Source: Deltaproteobacteria bacterium (GTDB taxonomy: Bacteria > Desulfobacterota > Desulfarculia > Adiutricales > Adiutricaceae). From it: 64,000 nucleotides of DNA. Below, piece by piece: positions 11,822 to 51,050 of this stretch. The stretch spans positions 103 through 64,102 of the forward strand of contig JAITII010000111.1 in assembly GCA_031279515.1 (NCBI GenBank). The letters run 5' to 3'. A program made the position numbers and the translations under genes. The first letter of the stretch is position 1. Every line of letters starts with the position of its first letter. Below the pieces are notes generated by a model that was not told the origin of the DNA, made no database searches, and worked only from the letters and a program-made list of their open reading frames with translations.

Positions 11822-12757
11822 CTAAAGATAGGGATCTGCCACAAGTCCATCGTGGTCCACAGGCTCTAAGTGGAAGGTGATATCCGCCTTGGGAAAATGC
11901 TCCTGGATGCCCGAGACCACTTGCATGCCCAAGCTATGGGCCTCGTCCACAGATAAAGAGCCGTCCACCAAGAGATCTACCACGACTATCTGAAAGGGTC
12001 CAGACCTACGGGATCTAAGTTTCCTGTAACCCTTTATCCTGGGCGCGAACTGGGCTATATGTTCCCTTATCAGGGTTAGCTCCTCTTTGGTTAAGGAATG
12101 GTCCACTAAAGTGGACACAGCATCCCTAGCTAAGGCCCAACCTGTCTTGATGATGAAAAAGGAGACCACCATGGCCGCCACGGAATCGATGAAGTCTAGC
12201 TTCCAGGCGGGATTTATGAGGTTACCTAGGTGAATTATCAAAAGGGCCCCAAAAATCCCCAAAGAAGTCATAACGTCGGTGCGGAGATGCCAGCCGTCAG
12301 CAACCAAGGCCGGGGATCCTGTCCTCTTGCCAGCCTTGAAAAGAATCCTTGAGACCAGAAAGTTTACCAAGGAAGAAACGAACATGACCGCAAGGCCTAT
12401 TGTCAAAGAGGGTAATTTGTGGCCCTCCATCAGCCCTTCTATGGCTTCCTTGACAATATAGAGCCCACCTACAATGATTAAAATACCTTCAAAGAGGGCG
12501 GCTAAGTTTTCCACCTTTCCGTGGCCAAAGGGGTGATCCGGATCCGGAGGGGTATCAGAATACTTTACGGCTAAGAAGGTCAAAAAGGAGGCTAAGAGAT
12601 CCAGACAAGAATGCACCGCTTCAGAGATTATGGCCACAGAGCCAGTTATTATCCCAGCTACGAGCTTCAATACTATTAAAGTAGAGTTGGAAAGGATAGA
12701 AAAAAACGCATAGTGTGAGTTTTTGTATTCTTTCCCTTGGCTCTGGCTTTCACTCAT
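11822..12757 (-). CDS. Cation diffusion facilitator family transporter
   Basis: 311 aa with about six TM helices, metal-site motifs (EAVHSCLDLL, WHLRTDV) and a C-terminal cytoplasmic domain. Confidence 0.9.
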   Translation of the reverse strand: MSESQSQGKEYKNSHYAFFSILSNSTLIVLKLVAGIITGSVAIISEAVHSCLDLLASFLTFLAVKYSDTPPDPDHPFGHGKVENLAALFEGILIIVGGLYIVKEAIEGLMEGHKLPSLTIGLAVMFVSSLVNFLVSRILFKAGKRTGSPALVADGWHLRTDVMTSLGIFGALLIIHLGNLINPAWKLDFIDSVAAMVVSFFIIKTGWALARDAVSTLVDHSLTKEELTLIREHIAQFAPRIKGYRKLRSRRSGPFQIVVVDLLVDGSLSVDEAHSLGMQVVSGIQEHFPKADITFHLEPVDHDGLVADPYL

Positions 12758-33697: not shown

Positions 33698-34203
33698 TCC
33701 TCAAAGAGTCGCTCGCTATTTCCAGAGAATTTAGAAATTTATGGTTAGAATTAAATGAGTTTTATCGGCAAAGCATACAGTGCAAAAAATTTCAATTCTG
33801 AAAAAATAACAAAACCTAAAAATTATTCTATAAATTAAAGCAATTGAAATTTAATCTATATATTGCTGAGGAAAAATCTATTGATACAAAATATAGCATC
33901 AAGATTCATTGCCTTGAATTTCAAGGCTTCTAGCTTTGGAAAAAAAGTAATAAATCTTACCACTTGGATAATTAAGTTTCAAATATAAATAAGCTTTCCT
34001 TTCTTTTACTGGAAGTCAATGAGGCGGCTTAAAAAGCTCGCTAAGAAGCTAAAGTACCCGCAGATCAAGGATTAAAGCTAAATTTAAAGCCTTTAAATAA
34101 AATGAACCCACAAGGTACAAAATCAATATCCCTACGGCAGGGCCTGGGGATTTTAAGTCCTAAATTAAACGCCCAGCCTAGGAGATTAGATTCTAAGTTC
34201 TTC

Positions 34204-34232
34204 TTGACACGAAGATATATTTATGCTATAAA
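34204..34232 (+). promoter_or_regulatory. Candidate sigma-70 promoter of the sigma-54 activator gene
   Basis: TTGACA (34204-34209), a 17-nt spacer, then TATAAA (34227-34232). It lies inside the track's long ORF, which supports the shorter start at 34252. Confidence 0.5.
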
Positions 34233-34251
34233 ATCCTCAAGGTGGTCACGT

Positions 34252-35766
34252 ATGACGCTCGAAACTCCACAGCCAAACACGGTATCCAACCTTCAGGAAT
34301 TTCTGGAAACTTTGGCCTTCAGCCCCGATCAATTGAAACTAATGTTCGATTCCTTCCCACTAGGGGTCATAGTTACAGACGACACAGGAAGCGTTATATA
34401 CTATAACGACGCCCATTCTAGGATTGATGGGATCACCCAGAATGAAATGCTGGGTAGAAAAGAAATTGAGGCCTTGGCCCCCATCACGGGACCCAACGTG
34501 ATGTCTATCTGCCAAAAAACGGCCAGCCCAATCCTAGGCTACATCTATCCCTACATGACTTACAAGGGCAGAGTAGTAAATGCGGCTTATTGGGTTTACC
34601 CTATCTTAAGGGATAATAGGGTAACAGGGGCTATTTGCTTCACCCAACCCCTCTTAAACGAGTATAACGCAGCCAGGCCCTACTCCAAGCCCCCCCTCCA
34701 ATGGCCGGGCTCCGAGCCCATCAAGGTGCCTACCACAAAGATTGTAGGACAAGATCCGGATTTTCTGAAGGCCGTTGAAGTAATTAAAAGTAATGCCTCC
34801 AATCATTTTCCTATTCTTATCTCAGGGGAGACGGGCTCCGGTAAAGAACTTTTAGCGAAACTCACTCACCAGGCCTCCCCCAGGAGAAATAAGCCCTATC
34901 TGGCCCTAAATTGCGCGGCAATCCCCGCCAACCTCTTAGAAGGACTGCTTTTTGGAACTATGAGAGGTAGCTTCACCGGGGCGATAGATAGGCCAGGAAT
35001 GCTCTCTGAGGCCAATGGCGGTACTCTGTACTTAGATGAGCTAGACTCCATGCCCTTGGAGTTGCAACCTAAGCTCTTACGGGCCATCCAGGAAATGCGC
35101 ACCTATAGGGTGGGCTCCACTGTGCCAGTGGATCTGGACTTAAAACTCGTGGTATCCATTGGTTCATCCCCCCATGAAGCCCTTAGCTCCGGTAGGCTGA
35201 GACCTGACCTATTTTACCGCGTGGCAGTGGTCCTCGTGAACATCCCGCCCCTCCGCAAGCGCCCGAATGATTTGATGCTGCTTGCTGACTTTTTCTTAAA
35301 CAAATACAATAATCTTTTAGGAAAGCAAGCCCTGAAAATAGACCCGCCCCTCTGGGAGGTCATGGAGAAATATCACTGGCCAGGCAATATCCGAGAATTG
35401 GAGAACATGTTGGCCGGCTCCATAGCCCAGGTCACAGACGAGCTCTACATTGGCCTTAAGCATGTCCATGAACACTATTTGCACGCCTTTTCTGGGGTAT
35501 ACACTTCCGACAGGATAATTGCCGCCACAAGTGAAAGGATAATGCCAATAAAAGCCCAAGAGAGTGAAAAATCCTTTCCCTTTAGAGATCGGGAACAATT
35601 CATAACTGCCCAGGAAGAATATGAAAAAAAAGAGACCGAGCTTAGAAACTGCATAAAGCGGAACAGGGGCAATATAACCTTGGCGGCTAAAGAGAAAGGC
35701 ATCTCCCGCCAGCTTATGAGCTATAGGCTTTCAAAATATAGGATTTCCGCTAAAGACTATCGCTAA
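34252..35766 (+). CDS. Sigma-54-dependent transcriptional activator (PAS sensor, AAA+ domain, Fis-type HTH)
   Basis: The start at 34252 (MTLETPQ) is preceded by AAGGTGG. It has a PAS-like N-terminus, Walker A GETGSGKE, the sigma-54 contact loop GSFTGA, WPGNIRELEN and a C-terminal HTH (AAKEKGISRQLMSYRLSKY). Confidence 0.9.
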   Translation: MTLETPQPNTVSNLQEFLETLAFSPDQLKLMFDSFPLGVIVTDDTGSVIYYNDAHSRIDGITQNEMLGRKEIEALAPITGPNVMSICQKTASPILGYIYPYMTYKGRVVNAAYWVYPILRDNRVTGAICFTQPLLNEYNAARPYSKPPLQWPGSEPIKVPTTKIVGQDPDFLKAVEVIKSNASNHFPILISGETGSGKELLAKLTHQASPRRNKPYLALNCAAIPANLLEGLLFGTMRGSFTGAIDRPGMLSEANGGTLYLDELDSMPLELQPKLLRAIQEMRTYRVGSTVPVDLDLKLVVSIGSSPHEALSSGRLRPDLFYRVAVVLVNIPPLRKRPNDLMLLADFFLNKYNNLLGKQALKIDPPLWEVMEKYHWPGNIRELENMLAGSIAQVTDELYIGLKHVHEHYLHAFSGVYTSDRIIAATSERIMPIKAQESEKSFPFRDREQFITAQEEYEKKETELRNCIKRNRGNITLAAKEKGISRQLMSYRLSKYRISAKDYR

Positions 35767-36074: not shown

Positions 36075-37799
36075 ATGGCTTCAATTTTTATCAGACCCTT
36101 GAAGGGCCGGCAGTACTATGGTATATATGGTGCAAAGCCTACTCGCGTTAAGGATACTGTCAACAACGAGCAAAATTACTTAGGCAAAGTCTTGATACCC
36201 TCAGGTAACGTCATTTTTAATGATAAACTAGAAAATTGGATAGAAGTACATGACCTTGATATGAATTATGTTTATGAAAAGATTTTGTCTAGCGCAAAAA
36301 AATTTGACTTACCTATTAATTTCATAAACCAAAATGTCAAACAAACTCAAGATGATAAAACTTTATCTGATAATATTATCGAATAACTAGATACTACAAT
36401 GCCAAATCTTTATAATGATATCGATATCTTATTTTCCGAACAGTTTGATTTTGGGCATATATATTTGCTAGATTATCTAAGCGAATCGTTAGGGCTAACA
36501 AAAATATTAAGTGATATTTTCCCCTCCAATTGGAAACTCATTTTAACTTTAGCAGAATATTTTGCTCTTGATTGTTCACAAAGCTTAGATTGCAGTACAT
36601 GGGTTAAGAAAGCGAATACCGAGCTTAATCCACAACTTCTATATTCTCAAAGAAAAAACGGTTTATTTTCATCTATTACAAATGATTCTATTTTTAAATT
36701 TTACGAAAAATGGTCAAGTACTGTTAGGGACCGCGATTTTTTTGCCTTAGATAATACATTTCTATCAACCTATTCCGATGATATTCTTGAAGCTGAATAT
36801 GGCTATAATCGTGATAGAGAAAAATTAAAACAAATAAATCTAAGCCTCATATTTGGTGAAACTTCTGGACTTCCTTTATTTTCATCTTTGTTCCACGGCA
36901 ATATGAACGACGTAAGAACATTAAAAAAGACAATAGAACAGTTTAAGTTGATAAACCAAACTAATTATAGCATATTTATGGATAAAAACTTTTTTAGTTT
37001 AGAAAATATTAATTTCTTAACTACACATAATCCTCCGATAAAATTTACTATTTCTTTACCTCAAACAGTTGACATGTTTGAAGAGCTAATATTAGATACT
37101 CTTCCTATCAGTTCCTCAAATGATTCAGTAATAGTAACTTCATCAGGAATTTCAATGGGAGTAAGCAAAAAAATTAAATGGTATAATGGAACAGATCTAT
37201 ATGCACATGTTTATCGTAATTATCATGAAAAATTACAAGTCGAAGAGATCGTAAAATACAATCTAATCGACATGCTTAACAAAGCAACCTTAAATCCAGA
37301 ACTATATATTAATGATAAAACTTTCAACGAAGTATTGAATTTTAGAAGATCAAGCAAGACTGAAAGTGGATATACTGTAAAAATAAAGCCTGATATGCTT
37401 AGTAAAAAAACTTTAACAAGTGGATGGCTAATATTACTATCAAATTGTATCAAAGACACTAGCCAAGCAATTCGGAAATACAGGAAAAAAGATGTTGTAG
37501 AAAAAGCTTTTGATCTTTTTCAAAATCATAATGCTTTAAAAGGAATAAAAGCCAATAGCTATATAAATTTATCATCTACGGTTTTCGTATGCTTTATTTC
37601 TTTAATTTTATTGTCTGAAATCCATGATGTTATGGATACTAAAAATCTATATTCTATATATTCTATGAGAGAATTACTTGAAACTCTAAGCACTCAACGT
37701 GTTATTCATATAAAAGATAAAAAAATACTTAAACCTATAACTATAGATCAAAGAAGGTTGTTTAAACATTTTAATTGCCCTTTGCCAAATACTTCTTAG
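36075..37799 (+). mobile_element. IS1634-like (IS4-superfamily DDE) transposase gene split by a single in-frame TAA
   Basis: Track ORFs 36075-36386 and 36399-37799 are in the same frame, separated only by TAA (36384-36386) plus 4 codons. Together they give ~570 aa with the family layout: N-terminal ..NYLGKV.., DDE-like FALDNTFLSTYS, IFMDKNFFSLENINFL and YRKKDVVEKAFDLFQN. The region is very AT-rich. The element ends are not resolved. Confidence 0.7.
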
Positions 37800-38538: not shown

Positions 38539-41418
38539 ATGAATAAAATAATCATTTTACTCATATTAATGATGTCTTTATTAATTTGCAGCCATTCTTT
38601 TGCTCAAAATGACCAGCTCTTGGATGAAGCCATAGAGCAAACTACCAGTCGCCTTGAAGCTTTAAGGGACAGTTTCGGTCTGCTCCACGAGGACACCCTA
38701 AGTTCATTGGACGAACTAATAGGCCTCTACCATCAAAAGGGTCTGTGGACCACTACCCTTGCCCTGGCAGACGAACTCATAGCTATGAGAAAACTCTATA
38801 ACGGCCCAGAGCATATCCTCACCTTAAGGGCCATGGCCAGGTGCCGAGACCTTCACTTTGAACTTGCCAATTACAACCTGGCCCAAAACTTGGCTCTAGA
38901 GGTCAAAGAAGCCGGAGATAGGCTTTTGGGTGAATGGGACCCCTTTACTATAGATGCTACCTTTAAGCTCATCTTAGGCCACTATAGCCTGGGGGAGACC
39001 CTGGAGGGCTTAAGGGTCTTAGATCTTTTAAGGGACGCTCTCACAAGTAATACCTCCTTGGCTCCAAGCTTCGAGTCAATATTGAGAGCCCAATATCTTT
39101 CCGCACTGGGCCATTTTCTTCTTGGTGACTACGAAGGGGCGGGCCTATTTGTCGATGTCATTTTAGAAGATCCTTTGCTACAAGACTTTCCAGAGCTCTA
39201 TATTGAGGCTTGGGCCCTCAAAAGAAACATCCTTTACTTTTCCGCAGATTTGGAAAACTACCTCATTTTAAAGGACCAGCTTTTGAGCCCGCAAGCCGTC
39301 TATGACCCTAGCTTACCTATAGCCCTTAAAGAAAACACCATCTTTGCCGCAGAGCTTTCCGCCCTTAGGGCCCCGGAAGCCGGGGCCCTCTATCGTGATA
39401 TCTTGGCCCTAGCCCAAGATAAGCTGGGACAAAGGCATCCCATAACTTTAAACATTCTGCTATCCTACCGCTCCCACCTCTTATCCATTGGCCAAGAGGA
39501 GGGTTTGGAAATGATATCCAATATTGCCAAAGAGCTTCCCTTCTCCGAGGCCTCCTTTCCCGTAGATTTGGATCTCTTACCTGCCCTAGAGCTCATGGAA
39601 GAAGGAAACTATAGTGAGGCCTTAGGGCTTCTACAGCAGATCCTTTTCTATAAGCTAGCTATCCTTGAGCACAATAACCCCCACCTCACCTTCCTCTATA
39701 CCCTCTTGGCAGAGGCTTCCTTTAAGGCCAGCCAGAGGGAAAATAGCTTACTAATATTTAAGGCAAGGCTTTTTAGCTATCTTCAAGGAGATTACCCTCC
39801 AGAGCGCCCTAGCTTGAATCTGGAAGAGGCGGTCTTTTACGCCAAGTTAGCCTGTGAGTATACACAAGAGCGCGAGTTTGCCCAGGAGCCTAACCCCTAT
39901 TTTGTACCCACTCCCTTTGTGCTGGAAAATAGGTACCACCTCCTTGCCAGTTTGCTTCTCTATTCAGACGACAGGATGCCTGAGGCCCTATTTGCCATGG
40001 ACCTAGTTAGGACCTCTGAACTGGAGGGCTTCAAGGACCAAAAGCACAATATTGGGCTCATGACAGACCCGGAAAGGGAGATAAAAGACCTACTTGACGC
40101 CAATGTGCGCTCTTTGCGCCTCTATAACCTCCAAAGGACCTCCCATTTGCTCCAAGTAGGAGATATTTCACTAATAAGTCTCCCGATGGAGCTGCCCCAG
40201 GATTTGACCCAATCCTCTCAAAGCTTTTTCGCAGCTCTCTTGGAGAGCCTCCAGGAGGCCATGGGAAGAACCCCTAAGACACTACCCTTAGCTGCCCAAG
40301 ACGATCCGGAGGTATTGCGTTTTATCGAGGCCTTAGGCGAAGACGAAGCCCTTATCCATATCTTTCTGGCAGAGGAAAGCTCCTTTTTAGTCATTTCCAG
40401 GCCAGCGGGGGTCTATAAAGTAATGACCAAGGTCCCCAAAGAACGGTACCTGGAAGCCATAGAGGCCTTTAGGGAATCTTTGGGAAATATTGGCCTTGAG
40501 TCCTTGGTGGCCTTAGAAGAGCTCCATAGCCTAAGTATCCAAACCCTTTTAGACAAGGGCTATTTAGAGCCCGACAGCATAAGCAAGCTCTTTTTCTACC
40601 TAGATGGCCCCATGCGGCAGATCCCCATGGCCGCTCTCTATGACGGCCAAAGATTTCTGGTGGAATCCTATACTATCCAACTCTATCCCCCCAACGCCTC
40701 CAAGGCTCACATGGGACCTGTGGCCAAGGAGGCCAATATCATAGGCTTGGCTACAAGTTTACCCTACCATGGGCTAAATCCTCTTTTAGGGGCAGAATTG
40801 GAAACCTCCCTCATAGTCAAAGACAAAGACAATCCCCAGGGCCTCTTTCCCGGTACAAAGGCCATAAATAAGAGCTTTACTTACGAATTTTTAATAAATG
40901 CCCTAAAAAAGCCCCCGGACCTCATCCACATTGCCACTCATTTTCTCTATAACCCCATAGATCACCGTAATTCCAAGCTTTTAATTGGAGATGGGGATTT
41001 AAAAAGCCTTGCCACCATGGATTTGGATGCTAACTTCAATTTTGCCGGCACCCGCTTAATAGCCCTTTCCGCATGTGAAACGGACCTAGGGCCCCCTTCA
41101 GAAGACGCCAGGGAATTGGAAAGCCTGGCTAGTCTTATTGTCATCCGAGGCGGCGGCTGCGTCCTCTCCACCCTCTGGAAGATAGATGACGGGGCAACGA
41201 GAACAATCATGGAGCTTTTCTACCTAAACCTTTCTGACGGATATACCATAGCCCAAAGCCTTGCCAGGGCCCAAGTAGCCGTCATCAAAGGTCACCTTTT
41301 GGAAGCTTCTGAAAACCCTAGGGGAGATATCCTCACTAGTGCTACCAATCCCGGGCTGACATGGGATGCGCACCCCTACTTTTGGGGCCCCTTTGTGCTA
41401 AATGGCGCCTGTAATTGA
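38539..41418 (+). CDS. Secreted TPR-repeat / CHAT (caspase-like) domain protein
   Basis: 959 aa with a signal peptide (MNKIIILLILMMSLLICSHSFAQ). The N-terminal two-thirds are helical and TPR-like. The C-terminal CHAT domain has the His/Cys dyad context LIHIATHF and LIALSACETD. Confidence 0.85.
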   Translation: MNKIIILLILMMSLLICSHSFAQNDQLLDEAIEQTTSRLEALRDSFGLLHEDTLSSLDELIGLYHQKGLWTTTLALADELIAMRKLYNGPEHILTLRAMARCRDLHFELANYNLAQNLALEVKEAGDRLLGEWDPFTIDATFKLILGHYSLGETLEGLRVLDLLRDALTSNTSLAPSFESILRAQYLSALGHFLLGDYEGAGLFVDVILEDPLLQDFPELYIEAWALKRNILYFSADLENYLILKDQLLSPQAVYDPSLPIALKENTIFAAELSALRAPEAGALYRDILALAQDKLGQRHPITLNILLSYRSHLLSIGQEEGLEMISNIAKELPFSEASFPVDLDLLPALELMEEGNYSEALGLLQQILFYKLAILEHNNPHLTFLYTLLAEASFKASQRENSLLIFKARLFSYLQGDYPPERPSLNLEEAVFYAKLACEYTQEREFAQEPNPYFVPTPFVLENRYHLLASLLLYSDDRMPEALFAMDLVRTSELEGFKDQKHNIGLMTDPEREIKDLLDANVRSLRLYNLQRTSHLLQVGDISLISLPMELPQDLTQSSQSFFAALLESLQEAMGRTPKTLPLAAQDDPEVLRFIEALGEDEALIHIFLAEESSFLVISRPAGVYKVMTKVPKERYLEAIEAFRESLGNIGLESLVALEELHSLSIQTLLDKGYLEPDSISKLFFYLDGPMRQIPMAALYDGQRFLVESYTIQLYPPNASKAHMGPVAKEANIIGLATSLPYHGLNPLLGAELETSLIVKDKDNPQGLFPGTKAINKSFTYEFLINALKKPPDLIHIATHFLYNPIDHRNSKLLIGDGDLKSLATMDLDANFNFAGTRLIALSACETDLGPPSEDARELESLASLIVIRGGGCVLSTLWKIDDGATRTIMELFYLNLSDGYTIAQSLARAQVAVIKGHLLEASENPRGDILTSATNPGLTWDAHPYFWGPFVLNGACN

Positions 41419-41614: not shown

Positions 41615-41630
41615 TGGCCCTTCCTTTGCA
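41615..41630 (+). promoter_or_regulatory. Candidate sigma-54 (-24/-12) promoter TGGCCCTTCCTTTGCA upstream of mttB
   Basis: The GG and GC dinucleotides have the canonical spacing (TGGCAC-N5-TTGCA consensus; one mismatch in the -24 hexamer). It lies about 190 nt upstream of the mttB ATG. Confidence 0.4.
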
Positions 41631-41821
41631 AAGAGAATTATAGGTTTTCGTTTTTTTATACTGGTCCAACTCATGGGCAATAAATGGGGGAGCCGGCCCC
41701 CCATTATCAATTTGTACTTGTATAAATAGTAGCCACATGGGTGCAACTAGTTTCTTATCCACATACCCTCAAAGGGAAAGAATTTTCTGTATGCTTCTCA
41801 ATTTCCGTAAAGGAGGTAACC

Positions 41822-43312
41822 ATGAGACGCGATCAATTCGCCGGTTACAACACCAGCGGAGGATTTAGGCTCCGTCCTTTCACTAAGGAGGAACTGGACC
41901 ATATCCACCGGGCGACATTGGAGGTCTTAGAGCATCAGGGCATTTTCGTCCAACACGACGAAGCCTTAGAGCTCTTTGACCGGGCCGGGGCTAGGATCAA
42001 TACCAAGACCAAAATAGTAAAGATCCCCGCCTTCTTGGTGAAAGATGCCTTGGATTCCACGCCAGAGACGGTGGTCATGCACGCCAGAGATCCCAAGCAA
42101 GATGCCGTCATCGAGTCCAACCGCGTAGCTTTCACTAACTTCGGTGAGGCCCTAAACGTTTATGACATTAATACCGGGGTACATAGGGAGACCTGCAAGC
42201 AGGATCTGGCCGACATGGCCACCATCATCGACAAGCTGGATGTAATCTCCGTGGTGGAACAGCCCGCAGGTTCCCACGACATGCCCCAGGAAATCGGGCA
42301 TCTTCACGACTACGAGGCCATCATGAACAACACCAGCAAGCACGTTGTCATGATGCCCCACAACATGGAGATTGCCGAGCTCTTGGTGCGCATGTCCGAG
42401 ATTGCCGCAAAGGCCCATTTCCCCAACGATCCGGTGGAAGACCACCGCATTTTATCCTTTTTAATCTGCCCGGTGAGCCCCTTGAGGCTCCTGGAGCCAA
42501 CCTGCGACGTCATCATCGTTGCCGCCAGAAACAACTGTGTTTGTAACGTACTTTCCATGGCTATGGCAGGCGGTTCCAGCTCCGTGCACCTGGCTGGCAC
42601 CCTGGTAACCCACAATGCCGAAGTGCTCTCGGGTATAGTACTAAGCCAGCTCGTGCGCCGCGGCGCACCCGTCATCTACGGCAGCTCCACCACAGCTTTT
42701 GACCTCCGCACCGGGGCCGCCGCCGTGGGCTCCCCTGAATTGGGGATGATAGGTGCCGCAGTGGGAGCCATGGCTCAATACTACAATCTGCCCAGCTGGA
42801 CGGCAGGTGGGTAGGCGGACAGTAAGGTTGCAGACGCTCAGGCGGCCTACGAGTGCACCATCACTGCACTCTACCCAGCCCTCGCCGGCGTCAACCTCAT
42901 CTACGGGTTGGGTATGCTGGAACTGGGAGTCACCTTCGATTACTCTCAGCTCCTTATTGGCTCTGACATAGCCGAGATGATACTTTACAGTTTGAAGGGA
43001 ATTCCGGTTACAGACGAGACTTTGGCGGTTGAGGATATCAAACAGGTAGGATCCTTTAAAGATTTCCTCACTCACAAGTCTACGATGAAGTACCTCCGTT
43101 CCCAGTCTTTTGCCCCTTACAGTGACCGCCGTATGCGCCACAATTGGCTCAAAGACGGAGGCAAGGACATGACTCAAAGGGCCCTAGAAAAGGCCAGGGT
43201 CATTTTGAACACCCACAAACCCTTGCCCATCCCAGAAGATGCCAGAAAGGCCATAAGGGAACTTATCAATAGGGAGGAAAAGGTTAGAAATCTCAACCTT
43301 TCCGCAGCCTAA
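41822..43312 (+). CDS. mttB: Trimethylamine:corrinoid methyltransferase MttB with in-frame UAG (pyrrolysine) at 42812-42814
   Basis: Track ORFs 41741-42814 and 42908-43312 share one frame and the 31 codons between them are open. The MttB-family sequence is continuous across ...YYNLPSWTAGG-[TAG]-ADSKVADAQAAYE.... AGGAGG lies 7 nt before ATG 41822. The true stop is TAA at 43310, followed by a strong terminator. A pyl cassette lies immediately downstream. Confidence 0.92.
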
Positions 43313-43334
43313 AATCCCAATTGCTAAGAATTTA

Positions 43335-43371
43335 AAAGGCGGGACGCCCTAGGGGCTTTCCGCCTTTTTTT
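43335..43371 (+). terminator. Rho-independent terminator after mttB
   Basis: AAAGGCGGGACGCCCTAGGGGCTTTCCGCCTTTTTTT: a long GC-rich stem followed by a 7-T run. Confidence 0.7.
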
Positions 43372-43442
43372 ATTAGGGGCTTTAGGGTATAATATTATAC
43401 TTAAGTTTTATGTCCTCCAATACACTCCTAAGGGAGGTGTGA

Positions 43443-44297
43443 ATGCAATTTTCCAATGACCAAATTAAACGCCTCACTGAGATGGGAGCAGCTCCAGAAG
43501 ATTTAGAAGAAGTATTTCCGGATAGCGCTTCGGCCAACAAGGCATTTCAAAAGATTGAAACTAGGCTATCTAGGAAGCTTTCAGAGGGCATAAAGAATTA
43601 CTTAAAAAATGGCTCTAGGCCAGAAGGGGCTATTTTAAAGGAAAAGCTCTCTGTGGCACTTTGTGACTTCGGGTTTTCCGAAGTGGAAACGCCCCTTATA
43701 GTCTCTAAAAAATTGTTGGAGCGCATGGGCTTAGATGATGAGAGTGCCCTAACAAAACAGATTTTCTGGCTGGATGCCAATAGGGCTATTAGACCCATGT
43801 TGGCCCCCAACCTCTATTACCTCCTGGTGGATCTCCTGCGCATAGCGCCCCACCCTGTCTCCATCTTTGAAATAGGCCCTTGCATGCGCAAGGAGAGCCA
43901 AGGCGCTCGCCACGGTGAAGAGTTTACTATGCTCAACATCGTTGAGATGGGCCTTAAAATGGAAGATAGAATGGCCAGGACCCTTGCTTTGGCCCGCTTG
44001 GTACTGGAAACCATAGGAATTCCCTTTGAAAGCTGCAAGGTGGAAGAAGAAAGTTCCACCGTCTATTCCACTACCTTGGATATAGTGAGCCCCCAGGGAC
44101 TGGAATTGGCCTCCACAGCCATGGGGCCGCACCCCTTAGATGCCCCCTGGAGGATAGATGTCCCCTGGGTGGGCCTAGGCTTTGGCATAGAGCGCCTGCT
44201 CATGGCCTTAAAGGCGCAAAAAGGGGAGACAGTAAACCTGGCGAAGGTCTCAAGGAGCCTTTCATACCTGGGCGGCTTCCGCCTGAATATTTCTTAA
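43443..44297 (+). CDS. pylSc: Pyrrolysyl-tRNA synthetase, catalytic C-terminal protein (bacterial split form)
   Basis: 284 aa with class II aaRS core motifs RPMLAPNLYYLL, IFEIGPCMRKESQG, EFTMLNIVEMG and VGLGFGIERLL, and the C-terminus SLSYLGGFRLNIS typical of PylS. The RBS is GGGAGG. Confidence 0.93.
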   Translation: MQFSNDQIKRLTEMGAAPEDLEEVFPDSASANKAFQKIETRLSRKLSEGIKNYLKNGSRPEGAILKEKLSVALCDFGFSEVETPLIVSKKLLERMGLDDESALTKQIFWLDANRAIRPMLAPNLYYLLVDLLRIAPHPVSIFEIGPCMRKESQGARHGEEFTMLNIVEMGLKMEDRMARTLALARLVLETIGIPFESCKVEEESSTVYSTTLDIVSPQGLELASTAMGPHPLDAPWRIDVPWVGLGFGIERLLMALKAQKGETVNLAKVSRSLSYLGGFRLNIS

Positions 44298-44305
44298 GGC
44301 AGAAT

Positions 44306-45193
44306 ATGACACGTCTAACCTCCGAACACCTTCTAGACGGTTTCGACGAAAGGGGTTTTTCCCAGTTCCTCTCGAAACAATTGCATACGGATATCTTCCA
44401 TCTCACTTGCCGCGCCTGGGATTTGGATCCGAAAAAACTGGCAAGTAAGTTAAAAATGAAGAAACTAGCCGCCATTAGAATAAGTTCCGGAGAAGGTACC
44501 ATCACCGGCTTTGCCGAAATTGTAGCTGAAGCGGCTTCACTTATGGGGCTCCTTGCAGAGGTCATGGAAGCCCCAGATGATGAGGGCTTTATTGAGGCGC
44601 ATAATTGGGGAGCGGACATCTTGGCGTACTCGGATGACTGGGACTTTGTGGCCCAAACAGCGGACAAAAGCCGCACTATACATAACAATCCCGCCACCAG
44701 TCGCATCTATGTCTCTAGTTTAGAATTTTTAGTGGGCACAAGTCTAAAGGGCTTAGATGTCCTGGTTTGGGGCTTGGGACCAGTGGGTTTGGGAGCAGCC
44801 TTTAGGCTTTCAGAGCTAAAAGCTAAAGTCCACCTCTACGACACGGACCAGGGTGCCCTTCTAAAGGGTGAAAAACTAATCCCTGGGGCAAGTTCCATTA
44901 AAGGCGAAGGGGCCCTTTTAGATTATCTCAAAAACTATCAAAAACCCATTATTTTCGAGGCAGTACCACAAGAGGAGCTAATAGGGTCCCTAAGCCTAGA
45001 GTCCCTCTTTGAGGGAAAGGCCCCAAGAGTAGCAGCCCCTGGGGTGCCTCTATCCTGGCCTTTTAACTGGCTTAAGGGCGAAAACGGCTCCCTTTTCCAC
45101 GAGCCCTTGATGGCAGGGACCGCCTCCATGCTAGCCGGATTATGCGTAGAAGATTATTCTCCCCAATACGGCAAGGCCTTGGAAATTTTATAA
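44306..45193 (+). CDS. pylD: Pyrrolysine biosynthesis dehydrogenase PylD
   Basis: 295 aa with the PylD-like layout: AAIRISSGEGTITGF (compare the VPVTSGNGIIGNF type), Rossmann motif VLVWGLGPVGLG and C-terminal PLMAGTASMLAGL. Confidence 0.85.
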   Translation: MTRLTSEHLLDGFDERGFSQFLSKQLHTDIFHLTCRAWDLDPKKLASKLKMKKLAAIRISSGEGTITGFAEIVAEAASLMGLLAEVMEAPDDEGFIEAHNWGADILAYSDDWDFVAQTADKSRTIHNNPATSRIYVSSLEFLVGTSLKGLDVLVWGLGPVGLGAAFRLSELKAKVHLYDTDQGALLKGEKLIPGASSIKGEGALLDYLKNYQKPIIFEAVPQEELIGSLSLESLFEGKAPRVAAPGVPLSWPFNWLKGENGSLFHEPLMAGTASMLAGLCVEDYSPQYGKALEIL

Positions 45194-45267
45194 ATAAGGG
45201 CACAAAGCGCATATTTAGATGATTTTACTTTTACTTACTTACATTCTTTGATGATGAAAATATATCT

Positions 45268-45341
45268 GGAGAGCGGATCGGATTATGATCACGGGGACTC
45301 TAAATCCCCGCAGTCGGGCGAGACACCCGGGCTCTCCGCCA
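45268..45341 (+). tRNA. pylT: tRNA-Pyl (anticodon CUA at 45300-45302), CCA encoded
   Basis: The hand-folded structure is:
- acceptor stem GGAGAGC/GCTCTCC
- one nt (G) between the acceptor and D stems
- a 5-bp D stem with a 5-nt loop (GATTA)
- a 6-bp anticodon stem CGGGGA/TCCCCG with loop CTCTAAA
- a 3-nt variable loop CAG
- T arm TCGGG-CGAGACA-CCCGG lacking the T-psi-C-type GTTC sequence
- discriminator G, then CCA
These are the known idiosyncrasies of tRNA-Pyl. Confidence 0.9.
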
Positions 45342-45354
45342 TTTTAGGTGTGTT

Positions 45355-45714
45355 ATGGTAGAAAACGTCAATACCAAGAGGGTAGCCAAGAGATACTACC
45401 GTAAAAAGAACGACCTTTTCTCACTTTTGGAAAAGATTAAGCTGTGGCCCTCCCGCTCCGGTAGACTCCACGGTATCTTGACTATAACCATACACGGAGA
45501 GATGGCCACCATCACCACCCACTGCGGAAAGACTTTTCAGGTCCGCAACTCCCGCAACTCCCGGGCAGCTAGGTGGTTGCGCAACAAGTACTATTCTGGC
45601 GCCTGCACGGCTTGCGGCGTGCCGGAATGGAAGCTGGCCAAATACGGCCAGACCTTTTTCAGCCGCAGCTACGGCGCCTATTTAAAACCCGGGGATCTAA
45701 GGTCATGCAAGTAG
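45355..45714 (+). CDS. pylSn: Pyrrolysyl-tRNA synthetase N-terminal tRNA-binding domain protein
   Basis: 119 aa. The segment LWPSRSGRLHGILTITIHGEMATITTHCGKTFQVRNSRNSRAARWLRNKYYSGACTACG resembles the archaeal PylRS N-domain (..LWMSRTGTIHKI...[24 protein letters not shown]..). It starts 13 nt after the tRNA and ends in TAG (45712-45714). Confidence 0.88.
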   Translation: MVENVNTKRVAKRYYRKKNDLFSLLEKIKLWPSRSGRLHGILTITIHGEMATITTHCGKTFQVRNSRNSRAARWLRNKYYSGACTACGVPEWKLAKYGQTFFSRSYGAYLKPGDLRSCK

Positions 45715-46760
45715 CATACAAAGACATAACTGACAAGGCCCTGGACCTTTATCCCTTGGGACATGAGGAGCTCACACGCCTTATCTTGCCTAAAGATGAA
45801 GACGAAAGGGAACTTTTGCATTCATCTGCCAGGACTCTCAGAAAACGCTTCACAGGATCACTTATTTTTACCTACGGGTTCATCTATCTATCCACCATCT
45901 GCCGCAATGACTGCAGCTTTTGCTTCTACCGCAAATCCAATGGGAAATCCCACAGGTACCGTAAGACCCATGAGGAGGTAATAAGAGCTGCCAAATCCTT
46001 AGCCGAACAGGGAGTAAACCTTATTGACCTCACCATGGGAGAGGACCCTGATGTGGAAAAGAGGAGCTACTTAGAAGACACGGCCACCCTCATCCGCGAG
46101 GTCTGTCAACACACCTCCATGCCGGTTATGATCTCCCCGGGACTTATCTCCTCTTACGGCCTTGAACTCTTCCGTGAGGCAGGGGCACTCTTCTACGCCT
46201 GTTACCAAGAGACCCATAGTCCCTCCCTCTTTGGACTCCTGCGCTGCGGGCAAAGCTATGCCGCCCGCTGGAGCGCCAAAAAAAAGGCTAAAAAGACGGG
46301 GCTTAAGGTGGAAGACGGGGTCCTCTGCGGGGTGGGCGAAAGCGTAAAGGACCTGGCTAACTCCATCCTCTCCATGAAAGAATTGGGCGCAGCCCAAGTA
46401 CGGGCCATGGCCTATGTACCACCACCCACTGGTAAAAAAGAGAACTCCTCACCTTCTAAGGCCGCCCGCCGCCGCGAGCTGGACATGATAGCCGCCTTGC
46501 GCCTAAGTTTTCCCAATGCCCTTATCCCGGCATCCTTGGATGTGGAGGGGGTAGCGGGACTTTTAGACCGCTTAAATGCCGGCGCTAACCTTATAACCTC
46601 CTTTGTCCCAGCCTCCCAAGGCCTGGCAGGTGTTGCCCAGGCAGCTTTAGACATTGAAAACGAGAGCCGCTCCCTTCATCATGTATTGCCACTTTTAGAG
46701 CAATTAGGACTTACTGCTGCAAGCCCGCAAGAATACATAGAAAAGGTGAAGAGCTTATGA
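45705..46760 (+). CDS. pylB: Methylornithine synthase PylB (radical SAM)
   Basis: The start is taken at ATG 45705 (MQVAYKDITDKALD); the track start at 45573 lies inside pylSn. Motifs are CRNDCSFCFY, LTMGEDP, MISPGL, YQETH, VEDGVLCGVGE and IPASLDVEG...RLNAGANLITS. Confidence 0.93.
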   Translation: MQVAYKDITDKALDLYPLGHEELTRLILPKDEDERELLHSSARTLRKRFTGSLIFTYGFIYLSTICRNDCSFCFYRKSNGKSHRYRKTHEEVIRAAKSLAEQGVNLIDLTMGEDPDVEKRSYLEDTATLIREVCQHTSMPVMISPGLISSYGLELFREAGALFYACYQETHSPSLFGLLRCGQSYAARWSAKKKAKKTGLKVEDGVLCGVGESVKDLANSILSMKELGAAQVRAMAYVPPPTGKKENSSPSKAARRRELDMIAALRLSFPNALIPASLDVEGVAGLLDRLNAGANLITSFVPASQGLAGVAQAALDIENESRSLHHVLPLLEQLGLTAASPQEYIEKVKSL

Positions 46761-47902
46761 CATTCACACTTGGTATTTTGGGAGGAGGCCTCCAGGGACT
46801 GGAAGCCGCCCTCATAGCCAAGCTTTCAGGTTGGAACACCGTAGTGATGGACGGGAAAGATATGGCGCCAGCGGCCAAACTGGCAACAAAATTTGTTGCC
46901 AAAAAAGCCCAGACCATTCTGGACCTAGAGAATTCTTTCCATAATTGCGATGCTATCTTGCCTGCCAATGAGAACCTTAGCTCATTGGAACTTGTGGACA
47001 AGTGGCACAAGTTGGGCTCTTCCCCACCTGTGGCCTTTGATCTTAAATCCTTTAGGATCTCTAGGGATAAAGAAAAATCCAAAAAGCTCTTCCTAGAGGC
47101 CCAAGCGCCCGTGGCGGCTAGCTATCCAGGATGCGACTTTCCTTTAATTGCCAAACCCACAGACAGAAGCGGCAGCCAAGGGGTTACGCTCATAAAAAAT
47201 AAAGAGGAACTGGAAAGATTATTCCCAGAAGGCAATACTAAAGGCTATCTTTTTGAAGAGTATTGCCCTGGACCATCATATTCACTGGAACTTACGGGAA
47301 AACCGCACAACTATAAGACCTGGGTTGCCACCTATCTGGAGATGGACAGTAGCTATGACTGCAGGGCCGTGTGGTCACCTGTGGCGGATGCGGCTTTAGA
47401 AGAGAGCTTTGCGGCAATATCTGTTGCTCTGGCAGAAAAACTGGAGCTTATTGGGCTCATGGATATTGAAGTTATAGACACACCTAAAGGCTTAATTGTT
47501 CTGGAGATAGATGCCCGCTTTCCTAGCCAGACTCCGGTGGCTGTCTACCTATCTTCGGGGGTAAACCTTTTAGCAGAACTACTCTCCCTTTTCACAAAGG
47601 ATGTCCCGCAAGAGCTACAAAAAGAGCCTATGTTTTCACTTTTGGAACACTTAGACGTCAAAAATGGACAGATGTCCCTGATGGGCGAGCATAGGATCGC
47701 CCAAGCAAGGCCCCTATCCCTCAAAGAAAATTTTTTTGGGGCACCCTTGGCCTTAACGGACATGGAAGAAGGGGACACTAGTTTTGCCGCTACTATTATT
47801 TGCAGAGCAAAGACCCAAGCTATGCTAAAGCAGCAAAGGCGAGAGATCTATGAGCGGCTAGGGTTGCACCTGGGAACCAATGTGCCCAAGGAAATCGAAT
47901 AA
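46757..47902 (+). CDS. pylC: Pyrrolysine biosynthesis ATP-grasp ligase PylC
   Basis: 381 aa with N-terminal GILGGGLQGLEAA, LPANENL, FRISRDKEKSKKLF and LEIDARFPSQTP, the last nearly identical to archaeal PylC as I recall it. It forms an ATGA overlap with the pylB stop. Confidence 0.93.
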   Translation: MTFTLGILGGGLQGLEAALIAKLSGWNTVVMDGKDMAPAAKLATKFVAKKAQTILDLENSFHNCDAILPANENLSSLELVDKWHKLGSSPPVAFDLKSFRISRDKEKSKKLFLEAQAPVAASYPGCDFPLIAKPTDRSGSQGVTLIKNKEELERLFPEGNTKGYLFEEYCPGPSYSLELTGKPHNYKTWVATYLEMDSSYDCRAVWSPVADAALEESFAAISVALAEKLELIGLMDIEVIDTPKGLIVLEIDARFPSQTPVAVYLSSGVNLLAELLSLFTKDVPQELQKEPMFSLLEHLDVKNGQMSLMGEHRIAQARPLSLKENFFGAPLALTDMEEGDTSFAATIICRAKTQAMLKQQRREIYERLGLHLGTNVPKEIE

Positions 47903-47915
47903 CCCTAAGGAGTAT

Positions 47916-47941
47916 GGGGTATGGGTAAGGGGTATGGGTAA
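47916..47941 (+). repeat. Perfect 13-bp tandem repeat (GGGGTATGGGTAA x2) forming a canonical G-quadruplex motif
   Basis: The sequence is GGGG-TAT-GGG-TAA-GGGG-TAT-GGG, read directly. It begins 14 nt after the pylC stop codon. Confidence 0.6.
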
Positions 47942-48921
47942 CATTTCTATTTTCGCATTTAATTAGATGGATATTAGAGTGCATTAAAAAATAGTATGCT
48001 CTCAAGGTGCCATCACTTTTTTATAAAGTATAGCCCTCGTAGAAGTTAAGATATTTTAAATCAAAAAAATATCGCCTCTTGTAAGCTGATTTTTTTTGGT
48101 AAATAAAATTTATCCCCCTTTTTATATAAGATACATAAAAAAATTAGGGCCATAGTGCTTTCCATTACTAGAAAGATTTTTTCTCATTGTTCTATAGATC
48201 ATAGCATTTGGAATATTTATTAAAATATTTAAAAAATACGAAAAAGGCTTAAAAAAATTTTTTATAGCATTAAATCTTTTAATAGTAGAATTTTAGCCCC
48301 TGGGGCAAGTTAAATTATTTGCCCTCTTTAGCTAGTTTATTAATCTAAAATAGGATCTCTATCCCGGCCAAGGGAGCTGGCAAGTACTCTTGGATAAGCC
48401 GGCCAGTTAAAAAAGCTCTGGGCTAGCCAGCCCCAAGAGTCTCAGGCAAAGCCGCAAAGCCTCATGGGTATGCCATGGCACAAAGACCATTTTCTGGAAT
48501 TATAACTTGGTTTTTTCTCCTTGAGCCCGGGCCTTCTAAACTACCCCCATTTTTTTATCTGTTTAATCCCTAGCTTTACCAGGGGTTTAGAAATCCTAGG
48601 CCAAAAAACTGCGAAAGGAAGCAAAATTTTTATTATACTAGAATTAGAGAAAGATTATAATTTATTAGCTTATTATGCGTAACATAACTAATGAACGCAT
48701 ACTTATAAAATTTAGCTAATAGCCTAATTAAGAAGAATTTGCCGATATATCTTTAGTTCTGAGGGCAAGAAAACTAGACTGGTCTTATCATCTTGACTTT
48801 ATCCCTATAAATGTAGATAATCGATATTTGCTTTATTCCAAATTCTAAGCTAAAAAGAGTTCCAGCTCGCCTGGAATTGCCAAGCCTAAGTCTACTTACC
48901 ATCTTTTTTCCAAGGAGGCCA

Positions 48922-48972
48922 ATGGAAAGTGCCAGGGTACACCCTAGCAGTCCAGTACAATTAAAAACATGA
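48922..48972 (+). CDS. Candidate 16-codon leader uORF (MESARVHPSSPVQLKT) translationally coupled to the EF-G paralogue
   Basis: A strong SD (AAGGAGG) lies just upstream of ATG 48922, although the spacing is short. The uORF stop TGA (48970-48972) overlaps the EF-G ATG (48969-48971) as ATGA. The EF-G ATG has no SD of its own. Confidence 0.35.
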   Translation: MESARVHPSSPVQLKT

Positions 48973-51050
48973 AAGACGTCCAGAAACAGAGAACCGTTAG
49001 TTTGATCTCCCATGGAGGGGCCGGCAAGACCAGTTTGGCCGAGGCCTTTTTATACTTTACCAAGGTTTCCAGCCGCCTAGGTTCCGTGGCGGACGGCACC
49101 AGCTGCCTGGACTTCGAGCCCGAGGAAATCAAGAGAAAGAGCTCCTTATCCACCTCCTTCCATAGCGTACCTTGGAAGGGATGCCAGATAACCTTCGCAG
49201 ACACACCGGGTGGCGAGAACTTCTTAAATGACACCCGCACGGTAATGGAGGGCACAGATGGCGCCCTGGTCCTGGTGGATGCAGTTGACATGGTCAAGGT
49301 CTCCACAGAAAAGGGTTGGGCTTTCGCCGACTACTTAAACCTCCCGCGTCTTATTGTCATCAACAAGATGGACAAGGAAAGGGCCGACTATTACAGGACC
49401 ATTGACAGCATCACGGAGAACTTCACAAGCCCCAAACCCATACCCATAGCCATTCCCATAGGCGCTGAGGACAAGTTCACCGGCACGGTGGATCTCTTGA
49501 AAAACAAGGCCTATAGCTTTGATGCTCAAGGGAAGCCCACTGAACAGCCCATAGATGGAAACTTACAACCCCTAGTGGCCCAGTGGCGGGAAAAGCTTGT
49601 GGAAACCATCAGCGAGACGGACGACGCACTCATTGAAAAATACCTGGAAGGTCAAGAAATATCAGCCGAAGAGTTGGATAAGGCCCTAAAGGAGGCTGTA
49701 AAGGCAAATAAAATCGCCCCTATCCTCCCAGCAGGCGCTCTAAAGCTCATTGGGATCTCTGGTATCTTAGAGGCTATCTTAGGGCTCCTGCCCTCTCCGG
49801 CAGCCAGAGGTCCGGTGGAAGGCCATAGCCCCAGCGATCCGGTACAGCCATTTTTAAAAGAGCCCAGCGTAGAGGCCCCTTTCTCTGCCCTGGTTATCAA
49901 GACCACTGTAGACCCCTTTGCTGGACAACTCACTATCTTCCGTATCTTTTCCGGCACTTTGGCCCCAGATAGCGGTTTTTTAAACGTCACAAGGGGTCAA
50001 AAGGAGCGCTTTGGGCAACTCTTTACCTTGGAGGGCAAGAACCAGAAGTCCATAGAGGAAGCGGGCCCAGGAGACATAGTGGCTGTGGCCAAACTCAAGG
50101 TCACCCAGACCGGAGACAGCATAACCGACGAGGCTAGCCCTGTCATCTTTAACGCCCTTCCCCCCATGGAACCTGTGGTATCCTTTGCCGTTGAGGCTAA
50201 AAACAAGGGCGATGAGGAAAAGGTCTTTGCCTCTATCAATAAAATGACCCTAGAGGACGTAACCTTGCGTCTGAACCGCAACAATCAGACCAAGGAGATG
50301 ATCCTTTCAGGTATGGGCCAGGTCCATCTGGATGCCACCCTGGAAAAGATAAAGCGCAAATACAATGTGGAGGTCATCTTAAAGGCTCCCAAGGTGGCCT
50401 ACAAGGAGACCATCAAAGGCAGGGCCAAGGTCCAAGGCAAGTATAAAAAGCAAACCGGTGGCAAAGGCCAGTATGGCGACTGCGTGATAGAGCTAGAACC
50501 CCTGCCTAGGGGAGAAGGCTTTATCTTTGAAGACAAGATTGTAGGGGGAGTCATCCCCAGGCAATTCATTCCAGCAGTGGAAAAAGGCATAGTGGAAGCC
50601 ATGGCCGGAGGCGTAGTGAGCGGTAACCCAGTTGTGGACTGTAAGGTTGCACTGGTCTTCGGCAGCTATCACGATGTGGACTCCTCAGAAATGGCCTTCA
50701 AGATAGCCGGCTCCATGGCCTTTAAAAAGGCCTTCTTAGAGTGTAAACCCACCATCTTGGAACCCATCATGCTCTTGACTGTCACCGTCCCCGATGAGTT
50801 CATGGGTGATGTTATGGGTGATATCTCTAGCCGCAGGGGCAAACTATTAGGCACCGAAAGCCACGGGAAAAAGCAAGTCATAAATGCCCATGTACCTCAA
50901 ATGGAGCTCTTGACCTATTCACCGGTACTCACTTCCATGACAGGTGGTCGCGGCTCCTTTTCCCTGGAATTTGCCCACTATGACGAAGCGCCGGCACCGG
51001 TACGAGACAAGGTTATCTCCGAATATAAGCCCCAGGAGGAAAAGGAATAG
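48969..51050 (+). CDS. Elongation factor G family GTPase (EF-G paralogue)
   Basis: 693 aa with G1 SHGGAGKTS (not the canonical AHIDAGKT), G3 DTPGGENF and G4 INKMDK. EF-G domains II-V are recognisable (..GQVHLD.., ..YKKQTGGKGQYGD.., ..HDVDSSEMAFK..). Confidence 0.9.
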   Translation: MKDVQKQRTVSLISHGGAGKTSLAEAFLYFTKVSSRLGSVADGTSCLDFEPEEIKRKSSLSTSFHSVPWKGCQITFADTPGGENFLNDTRTVMEGTDGALVLVDAVDMVKVSTEKGWAFADYLNLPRLIVINKMDKERADYYRTIDSITENFTSPKPIPIAIPIGAEDKFTGTVDLLKNKAYSFDAQGKPTEQPIDGNLQPLVAQWREKLVETISETDDALIEKYLEGQEISAEELDKALKEAVKANKIAPILPAGALKLIGISGILEAILGLLPSPAARGPVEGHSPSDPVQPFLKEPSVEAPFSALVIKTTVDPFAGQLTIFRIFSGTLAPDSGFLNVTRGQKERFGQLFTLEGKNQKSIEEAGPGDIVAVAKLKVTQTGDSITDEASPVIFNALPPMEPVVSFAVEAKNKGDEEKVFASINKMTLEDVTLRLNRNNQTKEMILSGMGQVHLDATLEKIKRKYNVEVILKAPKVAYKETIKGRAKVQGKYKKQTGGKGQYGDCVIELEPLPRGEGFIFEDKIVGGVIPRQFIPAVEKGIVEAMAGGVVSGNPVVDCKVALVFGSYHDVDSSEMAFKIAGSMAFKKAFLECKPTILEPIMLLTVTVPDEFMGDVMGDISSRRGKLLGTESHGKKQVINAHVPQMELLTYSPVLTSMTGGRGSFSLEFAHYDEAPAPVRDKVISEYKPQEEKE

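Follow-up and report, generated by a model that had tools for sequence, protein, structure and literature searches.

We describe here an mttB gene on a 64,000-nucleotide stretch of a contig from a Deltaproteobacteria bacterium assigned to the Adiutricales (JAITII010000111.1, positions 103 to 64,102; assembly GCA_031279515.1), which is called the window in the following. What appears as a pair of open reading frames (ORFs) is very probably one gene of 496 codons (41822..43312, + strand) for a trimethylamine:corrinoid methyltransferase that contains pyrrolysine (Pyl). Its in-frame UAG at codon 331 (42812..42814, + strand), which aligns with Pyl334 of the solved methanogen enzyme 7XCL, is read here as the pyrrolysine codon.

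One reading frame with an internal UAG

The mechanical ORF list holds a 357-aa ORF with a GTG start (41741..42814) and a 134-aa ORF with a TTG start (42908..43312). Both are in the same frame, and the 31 codons between them are open (ADSKVADAQAAYECTITALYPALAGVNLIYG). Translated as a whole, 41822-43312 yields 496 codons and a terminal TAA at 43310-43312, and the TAG at 42812-42814 is the sole internal stop. The original prediction, made from the letters of the sequence alone, had taken the stop at TAG and the TTG restart at 42908 for parts of one gene rather than two, with an open stretch between them and the UAG as codon 331 of 496. Translation and ORF list confirm all of this. The flanking signals named there are present as well. 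The ribosome-binding site (RBS) AAGGAGG lies at 41810..41816 (+ strand), 5 nt 5' of the ATG at 41822, and AAGGAGGTA ahead of the start codon is invariant in five relatives. Behind the TAA follows an intrinsic terminator (43334..43375, + strand; fold and terminator scan) with a 15-bp interrupted stem and a U7 tract; its hairpin (43334-43368) is strong, with a folding energy of -25.6 kcal/mol and z = -2.79. No Shine-Dalgarno sequence was found before the TTG at 42908.

The protein family profiles give the same picture. The part before the TAG matches positions 31-338 of PF06253 (MTTB), and the part behind it matches positions 341-496. Both halves fall on adjacent stretches of the profile, and we therefore see one domain that is interrupted by this codon only. 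When the TAG is translated as X, as the original prediction had proposed, the product matches the MttB family from end to end and reaches 650.7 bits with TIGR02369 (cutoff 525). An arrangement with one domain over both halves and a TAG that is kept in the homologues is far beyond chance.

Conservation and selection across relatives

A homologue scan with one genome per species gave 26 loci, 24 of which are intact. Every intact homologue (24 out of 24, 40-91% identity) carries a TAG in the same column, in the context AG[G/L/T/N/F]-TAG-[A/G/V]DSK, and the set spans organisms from termite-gut Deltaproteobacteria to Methanimicrococcus archaea. Full-length identity to the window MttB amounts to 83-91% in metagenome-assembled genomes (MAGs) of termite-gut 'Deltaproteobacteria' and Candidatus (Ca.) Adiutrix, approximately 51% in Desulfobacterales, approximately 47% in Thermoleophilia, 47% in one Firmicutes MAG and approximately 41% in Methanimicrococcus methanogens. 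In 22 homologues the fetched sequence extends as far as a second stop, and here the frame runs on to codon 477-497; for the other two, L018 and L019, the contig ends ahead of any second stop.

Selection was assessed by the ratio of nonsynonymous to synonymous substitution rates (dN/dS) against the five closest relatives. This ratio is 0.05-0.08 before the TAG, 0.07-0.13 after it and 0.04-0.08 over the 31 codons from the TAG to the first possible restart codon, all in comparisons whose synonymous sites are saturated (dS > 1). Purifying selection on the codons after the TAG is as strong as on those before it.

These data bear directly on the most obvious alternative, namely that translation ends at the TAG. 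The gene would then be decaying or split, and its product would be an N-terminal fragment of 330 aa, perhaps accompanied by a C-terminal piece with a start of its own at the TTG at 42908. Public annotation is in line with such a view, since the JGI record shows a 'trimethylamine--corrinoid protein Co-methyltransferase' truncated to 330 aa, and NCBI has no mttB protein between the CHAT protein MDR2461069.1 and PylSc (MDR2461070.1, listed under the same name). TAG is also a common stop codon in the window, and other window genes are decayed, e.g., an IS4 remnant with an in-frame TAG at 22279. A true stop is difficult to reconcile, however, with the retention of the same TAG in all intact homologues across phyla and with the low dN/dS between TAG and TTG. 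The TTG lacks an RBS, the barrel and the catalytic Tyr361 are located downstream of the TAG, and a complete pyl cassette lies alongside. For practical purposes, the presence of the same TAG in 24 independent assemblies and a dN/dS of 0.07-0.13 downstream of it exclude a sequencing error as well as a pseudogene. The TAG in all 24 homologues, the dN/dS of the 31-codon stretch and the TTG without a Shine-Dalgarno sequence together make a pseudogene, a sequencing error or an arrangement of two polypeptides very unlikely. We hence consider termination at this TAG highly improbable, and retain the single Pyl-encoding mttB gene.

Two further observations were made at the homologous loci. Desulfobacterales (L006, L007, L008, L011) show three tandem mttB copies, each with a TAG in the Pyl column. 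Two independent metagenome contigs, L027 (61 kb) and L028 (39 kb), both end approximately 1 kb past mttB, which hints at an assembly-breaking repeat or strain variation at the junction of mttB and the pyl genes.

The pyrrolysine column and the active site

The nearest solved relative of the window protein is MttB of Methanosarcina barkeri (7XCL/7XCM; E = 1.7e-113, 44% identity, residues 4-488 aligned). In the pairwise HMMER alignment, Pyl334 of 7XCL, which is written as X, falls on X331 of the window protein (SYVAGS-X-SDAKV versus SWTAGG-X-ADSKV). This is in good agreement with the original prediction, which had assigned the UAG to the Pyl column and had placed the Pyl of Methanosarcina MttB near residue 334. 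It had also stated that non-Pyl homologues carry an ordinary residue at this site and had suggested an alignment with MtgB of Desulfitobacterium hafniense (2QNE/9YCE; 31% identity to the window protein); there, X331 meets a Leu. A MAFFT alignment of 29 sequences, 17 of the TAG type and 12 of the sense type, extends the comparison: X stands in this column in all 17 of the former, and the latter have A, W, L, V or H there.

Beyond the Pyl column, three residues of M. barkeri MttB, Gly110, Met249 and Tyr364, have roles in Pyl activation and pocket opening (PMC9842639). All three are conserved in the window protein, as G108, M246 and Y361. The exchange Y364F in the M. barkeri enzyme is reported to lower Vmax about 28-fold (PMC9842639). 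A Tyr in this column is present in all 17 TAG-type sequences, versus 7 of the 12 sense-type sequences.

A complete pyl cassette downstream of mttB

The 4.6 kb downstream of mttB contain all six pyl components on the + strand, intact and of full length. The first, pylSc (43443..44297), codes for the catalytic subunit of the pyrrolysyl-tRNA synthetase (PylRS; TIGR02367, 261 bits, cutoff 178) and starts 131 nt past the mttB stop, which is the distance at which the original prediction had placed the beginning of a complete pyl machinery. It is followed by pylD (44306..45193), whose product is probably a divergent 3-methylornithyl-N6-lysine dehydrogenase (Pfam PylD_N; TIGR03911, 127.8 bits, cutoff 150), by the tRNA gene pylT (45268..45341) and by pylSn (45355..45714) for the tRNA-binding small subunit of PylRS (TIGR03912, 121 bits, cutoff 51). 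The cassette ends with pylB (45705..46760), which encodes the radical-SAM methylornithine synthase (TIGR03910, 386 bits, cutoff 348), and pylC (46757..47902), which encodes the 3-methylornithine--lysine ligase (TIGR03909, 296.5 bits, cutoff 248). With the divergent PylD counted in, the pyl cassette is complete.

The tRNA gene was missed by the standard tools: ARAGORN and the Rfam tRNA models, in gathering as well as in E-value mode, report no tRNA here, a false negative. It was found by eye and with a custom stem scan in the spacer between pylD and pylSn. The tRNA comprises 71 nt plus an encoded CCA, and its minimum free energy fold is a cloverleaf (-33.1 kcal/mol). A single base separates the acceptor stem from the D stem, the anticodon stem has 6 bp, the variable loop has 3 nt, and the anticodon CUA stands in a CUCUAAA loop; a T-psi-C sequence is lacking. 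L001, L003 and L010 carry a homologue at the corresponding position, and L004 carries two. Across six homologues, compensatory changes affect four pairs, and 97% of the cells are paired, versus at most 62% in slid controls. The tandem copies in L004, a relative from the termite gut (4866-4934 and 5401-5469), differ from each other by compensatory changes in the anticodon stem.

The gene order mttB(TAG)-pylSc-pylD-pylT-pylSn-pylB-pylC is kept in L001, L003, L004 and L010. The usual order in bacteria is pylT-Sc-B-C-D-Sn or pylSn-Sc-B-C-D (PMC3941956). The order found here is a variant arrangement kept in this clade and is no bar to membership in the bacterial cassettes. The divergent PylD matches M. 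barkeri PylD (4J43) nearly over its full length (residues 51-277, E = 1e-14) and keeps the Rossmann motif GLGxVG; judged from this, it is probably functional.

A cassette of this kind also allows a second alternative to be weighed, according to which the UAG is read by a near-cognate standard tRNA (Gln, Tyr, Lys or Trp), so that the product is a non-Pyl enzyme and the pyl genes are non-functional. One could point to the divergence of PylD and to the identity of the pyl proteins among relatives (42-74%, versus 79-92% for MttB). Non-functional genes would, however, hardly appear as six intact components of full length, with a tRNA whose cloverleaf is preserved by compensatory changes, in a cassette that is syntenic with mttB in four relatives. 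Moreover, lineages without Pyl have a sense codon (A, W, L, V or H) in this column and not a retained TAG. Near-cognate decoding is thus exceedingly unlikely, and decoding by the pyl system remains the reading that we follow.

Some features of the pyl region are recorded for completeness. Compared with L001, L003, L004 and L010, the window shows identities of 42-51% for PylD, 42-56% for PylC and 58-66% for PylSc, versus 79-92% for the two halves of MttB. The window, compared over 43443-47902, is also much more AT-rich than the loci of the relatives. In L001, the closest relative, the spacer between mttB and pylSc (4664-4937) has a G+C content of 88% over 274 nt, which is extreme even in this GC-rich genome. 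After pylC in the window, approximately 1 kb of AT-rich, ORF-free sequence is followed by a paralogue of the EF-G gene (48969-51050; whole region 47903-51050). We considered this paralogue as a Pyl-specific factor and rejected it: its product is a standard match to the EF-G family, and the gene does not stand beside the pyl cassette in relatives, which makes a Pyl-specific role unlikely.

UAG usage and the search for a recoding signal

The Rfam model PYLIS_3 (RF02510, mttB) matches 42812-42911 with 62.7 bits (gathering score 38), and the match starts exactly at the UAG. As a functional structure, PYLIS was rejected. The segment folds like its shuffles (z = -0.31), and the synonymous divergence of the 31 codons after the TAG is at the 39th percentile of the gene, i.e., average. 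With neither a fold signal nor synonymous constraint, the match is explained by protein-coding conservation. The Rfam alignment also includes several non-canonical pairs.

TAG serves as the stop codon of 12 out of 42 window genes (about 29%), pylSn among them. UAG is therefore ambiguous and not reassigned. The same is reported for Pyl bacteria, in which control of expression is assumed to limit the damage (Prat et al. 2012, cited in PMC8318568). Within recognisable window genes, one further in-frame TAG exists, at 22279-22281, which was rejected as a second Pyl gene. It belongs to a decayed IS4-family transposase remnant (21829-22692) that has lost approximately 155 N-terminal residues (the DUF4372 part), and its column holds Ile or Met in intact homologues.

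The surroundings of the regular TAG stops were inspected as well. For the 12 TAG genes, the next in-frame stop follows at a median of 4.5 codons, versus about 10 for TAA and TGA genes, in a small sample. In one case, a cation-efflux gene (11822-12757, - strand), the TAG stop at 11822-11824 is in frame with the following tsaD (10754-11800); amber suppression at this stop would add 355 codons and fuse the cation-efflux protein to the tsaD product.

Probable sigma-54 control and the upstream neighbourhood

A candidate regulator of mttB is encoded at 34102..35766 (+ strand). The predicted protein is an enhancer-binding protein with PAS, sigma-54-interaction AAA+ and Fis-HTH domains (Pfam PAS, Sigma54_activat, AAA_lid_14, HTH_8). 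A motif of the sigma-54 type -24/-12 class, TGGCCC-N5-TTGC(A), is located at 41615..41629 (+ strand), 207 nt upstream of the mttB ATG; it reads TGGCCCTTCCTTTGCA and has one mismatch to the consensus TGGCAC-N5-TTGCW. Relatives carry the motif 194-279 nt upstream of mttB, either as a perfect TGGCAC-N5-TTGCA (L004, L010) or with one mismatch (L026, L001), and it is kept although the flanking sequence is unalignable among them. Orthologues of the activator gene stand directly beside mttB(TAG), in co-directional or divergent orientation, in eight relatives (L001, L002, L010, L026, L027, L028, L029, L030). This linkage includes a complete genome whose MttB has just 55% identity in the N-terminal part. 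Motif and linkage suggest that mttB is probably transcribed from the sigma-54 promoter at 41615-41629 under control of the PAS-domain enhancer-binding protein.

In the window, activator and mttB are separated by an insertion sequence (36075..37799, + strand) and the gene of a 959-aa CHAT-domain protein (38539-41418), which lies between the insertion sequence and mttB. The insertion sequence consists of a small ORF and a DDE transposase gene (36399-37799) and has a GC content of 29% (Pfam DDE_Tnp_1, GC profile). Both elements occur at this place in the window genome only. Since the activator gene directly adjoins mttB in relatives, they look like a secondary insertion. A different neighbourhood was seen in the complete genome of strain Smac51 (L029), where the activator gene is followed by a gene for a non-Pyl MttB, an MFS transporter gene and then mttB(TAG).

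Counter-evidence and the question of the substrate

Several observations weigh against the reading given so far and have to be considered together. PylD stays below its family cutoff, as given above. Because TAG ends 12 of the 42 window genes, efficient suppression would cause side effects. With respect to co-regulation, a strong terminator lies between mttB and the pyl genes, and no conserved sigma-54 motif was found before pylSc. The partner genes are missing as well: among the ORFs of at least 90 aa in the 64 kb, none encodes MttC, RamA or a methyl-corrinoid:tetrahydrofolate (THF) methyltransferase, and no corrinoid-protein, ramA or MT2 gene stands beside mttB in the relatives examined. Finally, non-Pyl full-length MttB homologues (P0016-P0054; 40-50% identical, with A, W, L, V or H in the Pyl column) score 611-771 bits with TIGR02369, above the cutoff, so that the profile score alone is uninformative on specificity for trimethylamine (TMA). 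We rejected this 'trimeth_pyl' equivalog as proof of the Pyl or TMA type for the same reason. A match to the MttB family is required of a Pyl-type enzyme but does not suffice; what identifies the Pyl type is the TAG together with the Tyr and the pyl genes.

A third alternative concerns the substrate. A full-length Pyl protein could be made while TMA catabolism is inoperative, either because another methylamine or a quaternary amine is used or because the pathway lacks MttC, RamA or MT2. The missing corrinoid-protein and activase genes, in the 64 kb and beside mttB in relatives, agree with this, and so does the family profile that fails to separate both types. Pyl-type and sense-type MttB also interleave in our neighbour-joining tree, which has no bootstrap values; this suggests repeated loss or gain of Pyl within the clade of MttB proper. 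We know of no Pyl-type MttB with a substrate other than TMA. The active-site set of Pyl, Tyr, Gly and Met is intact and mttB is under strong purifying selection, both of which argue against this alternative. Also, the characterised Pyl-type reference, M. barkeri MttB, is a TMA methyltransferase (PMC9842639), and in other bacteria the partner genes are distant too, being 'nearby (<10 genes)' or elsewhere (PMC8318568). Taken together, we regard a Pyl protein without operative TMA catabolism as unlikely.

With no partner gene in the 64 kb or beside mttB in relatives, TMA catabolism is deduced from the enzyme, and the window protein is a putative TMA methyltransferase, since a substrate cannot be read from sequence. 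For an operative TMA pathway our confidence is somewhat lower than for the single Pyl-encoding mttB. The original prediction had spoken of a genuine TMA methyltransferase in a bacterium. The Pyl column and the pyl set stand, while TMA is the presumed substrate, with no mttC or ramA in the 64 kb.

Proposed mechanism and significance

From these findings the following course of events is proposed. The mttB mRNA would be translated through the UAG at 42812-42814. PylB, PylC and PylD would make pyrrolysine out of two lysines, and the split synthetase PylSc/PylSn would charge the pylT product, tRNA(CUA), with it, as described for the pyl system (PMC3941956). A dedicated recoding element is apparently not needed, and Pyl-tRNA and release factor would compete for the UAG. 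The resulting product of approximately 55 kDa is expected, from the M. barkeri structure, to be a TIM-barrel methyltransferase (PMC9842639). Pyl331, aided by Tyr361 and the backbone of Gly108, would bind and activate trimethylamine, and a corrinoid protein, presumably encoded elsewhere in the genome, would accept the methyl group at its Co(I). From there the methyl group may proceed to THF and the Wood-Ljungdahl pathway. The relatives, Deltaproteobacteria of the termite gut and Ca. Adiutrix, have been described as putative homoacetogens. Transcription probably stops at the strong terminator after mttB, and the pyl genes would be expressed separately.

A wider picture can be drawn tentatively, and we consider it possible rather than probable. 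In the Adiutricales-like clade from termite and cockroach guts, mttB(UAG) and the rearranged pyl cassette might form one mobile-looking block, in which mttB is switched on by the PAS sigma-54 activator, perhaps in response to TMA or a related signal. Use of the 22nd amino acid would then be conditional and gated by sigma-54, and a putative homoacetogen might channel TMA methyl groups into reductive acetogenesis, in direct competition with the methylotrophic methanogens that share the gut (Methanimicrococcus, Methanomassiliicoccales).

The reading as a single gene corrects the public annotation of the contig with respect to mttB, PylD, PylSn and pylT. At NCBI, PylB (MDR2461073.1, 351 aa) and PylC (MDR2461074.1) are present, and PylD (LBE38_09925) and PylSn (LBE38_09930) are labelled 'hypothetical'. 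The consecutive locus tags of the latter two leave no room for an annotated pylT in this record. The known range of bacterial pyrrolysine use is extended to a lineage of termite-gut Deltaproteobacteria with kinship to the putative homoacetogen Ca. Adiutrix. Should the pathway be complete, TMA would be an acetogenic substrate, and competition with methylotrophic methanogens would bear on the methane output of the gut. There are lessons in terms of methods, too: bacterial tRNA-Pyl escapes standard tRNA finders, and the NCBIfam 'Pyl' equivalog fails to separate Pyl from non-Pyl MttB. The putative sigma-54 promoter and its activator provide a testable handle on the control of a UAG-containing gene where TAG still stops approximately 29% of the genes.

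Comparison with known systems

Pyl-dependent MttB is textbook knowledge for methanogens. In bacteria, including Deltaproteobacteria, Pyl-MttB is already established, and the window mttB adds to a known family. As far as can be judged from sequence, it carries every feature by which this family is recognised. New here are the lineage, the variant order of the cassette and the conserved sigma-54 control module, and the novelty is modest. A link of pyrrolysine to Adiutrix or termite-gut Deltaproteobacteria was not found in the literature searched, which did not include the Ca. Adiutrix genome paper.

With M. barkeri MttB (7XCL/7XCM/7XCN), the window protein shares the fold family, the UAG column and the residues corresponding to Gly110, Met249 and Tyr364 (PMC9842639). 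The differences are a bacterial host, a Glu in place of Thr111, and an mttB gene without adjacent mttC, mttP and ramA. The likely downstream acceptor in the window organism would be THF and not coenzyme M.

Among Deltaproteobacteria, Pyl-containing MttB is known from the Olavius algarvensis symbiont (PMC1976440) and Bilophila wadsworthia (PMC7593587), and the mttB of a marine, Desulfobacterales-like 'Deltaproteobacteria-bbl' has its TAG at position 327 of 485 (PMC8318568). These systems resemble the one described here in the in-frame TAG approximately two-thirds along the gene, the pyl genes, a nearby transcriptional regulator and the routine mis-annotation as truncated. In contrast to them, the window lineage belongs to the Adiutricales-like clade of termite and cockroach guts, with approximately 51% identity to the Desulfobacterales MttB. 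Its mttB and pyl cassette form one block, a cognate corrinoid gene is lacking in the vicinity, and the candidate regulator is identified as a PAS/sigma-54 enhancer-binding protein with a matching -24/-12 motif.

The cassette itself agrees with the D. hafniense type in the split PylRS (pylSc and pylSn), in pylB, pylC and pylD, and in the hallmarks of tRNA-Pyl (PMC3941956); it differs in the order pylSc-pylD-pylT-pylSn-pylB-pylC and in an unusually divergent PylD. The non-Pyl members of the MttB superfamily, i.e., D. hafniense MtgB and E. limosum MtcB and MtyB, share the Pfam family, the TIM-barrel fold and the GG-x-xDSK segment with the window protein. Where the window gene has its TAG, however, these enzymes have a sense residue, and their substrates are quaternary amines, not TMA.

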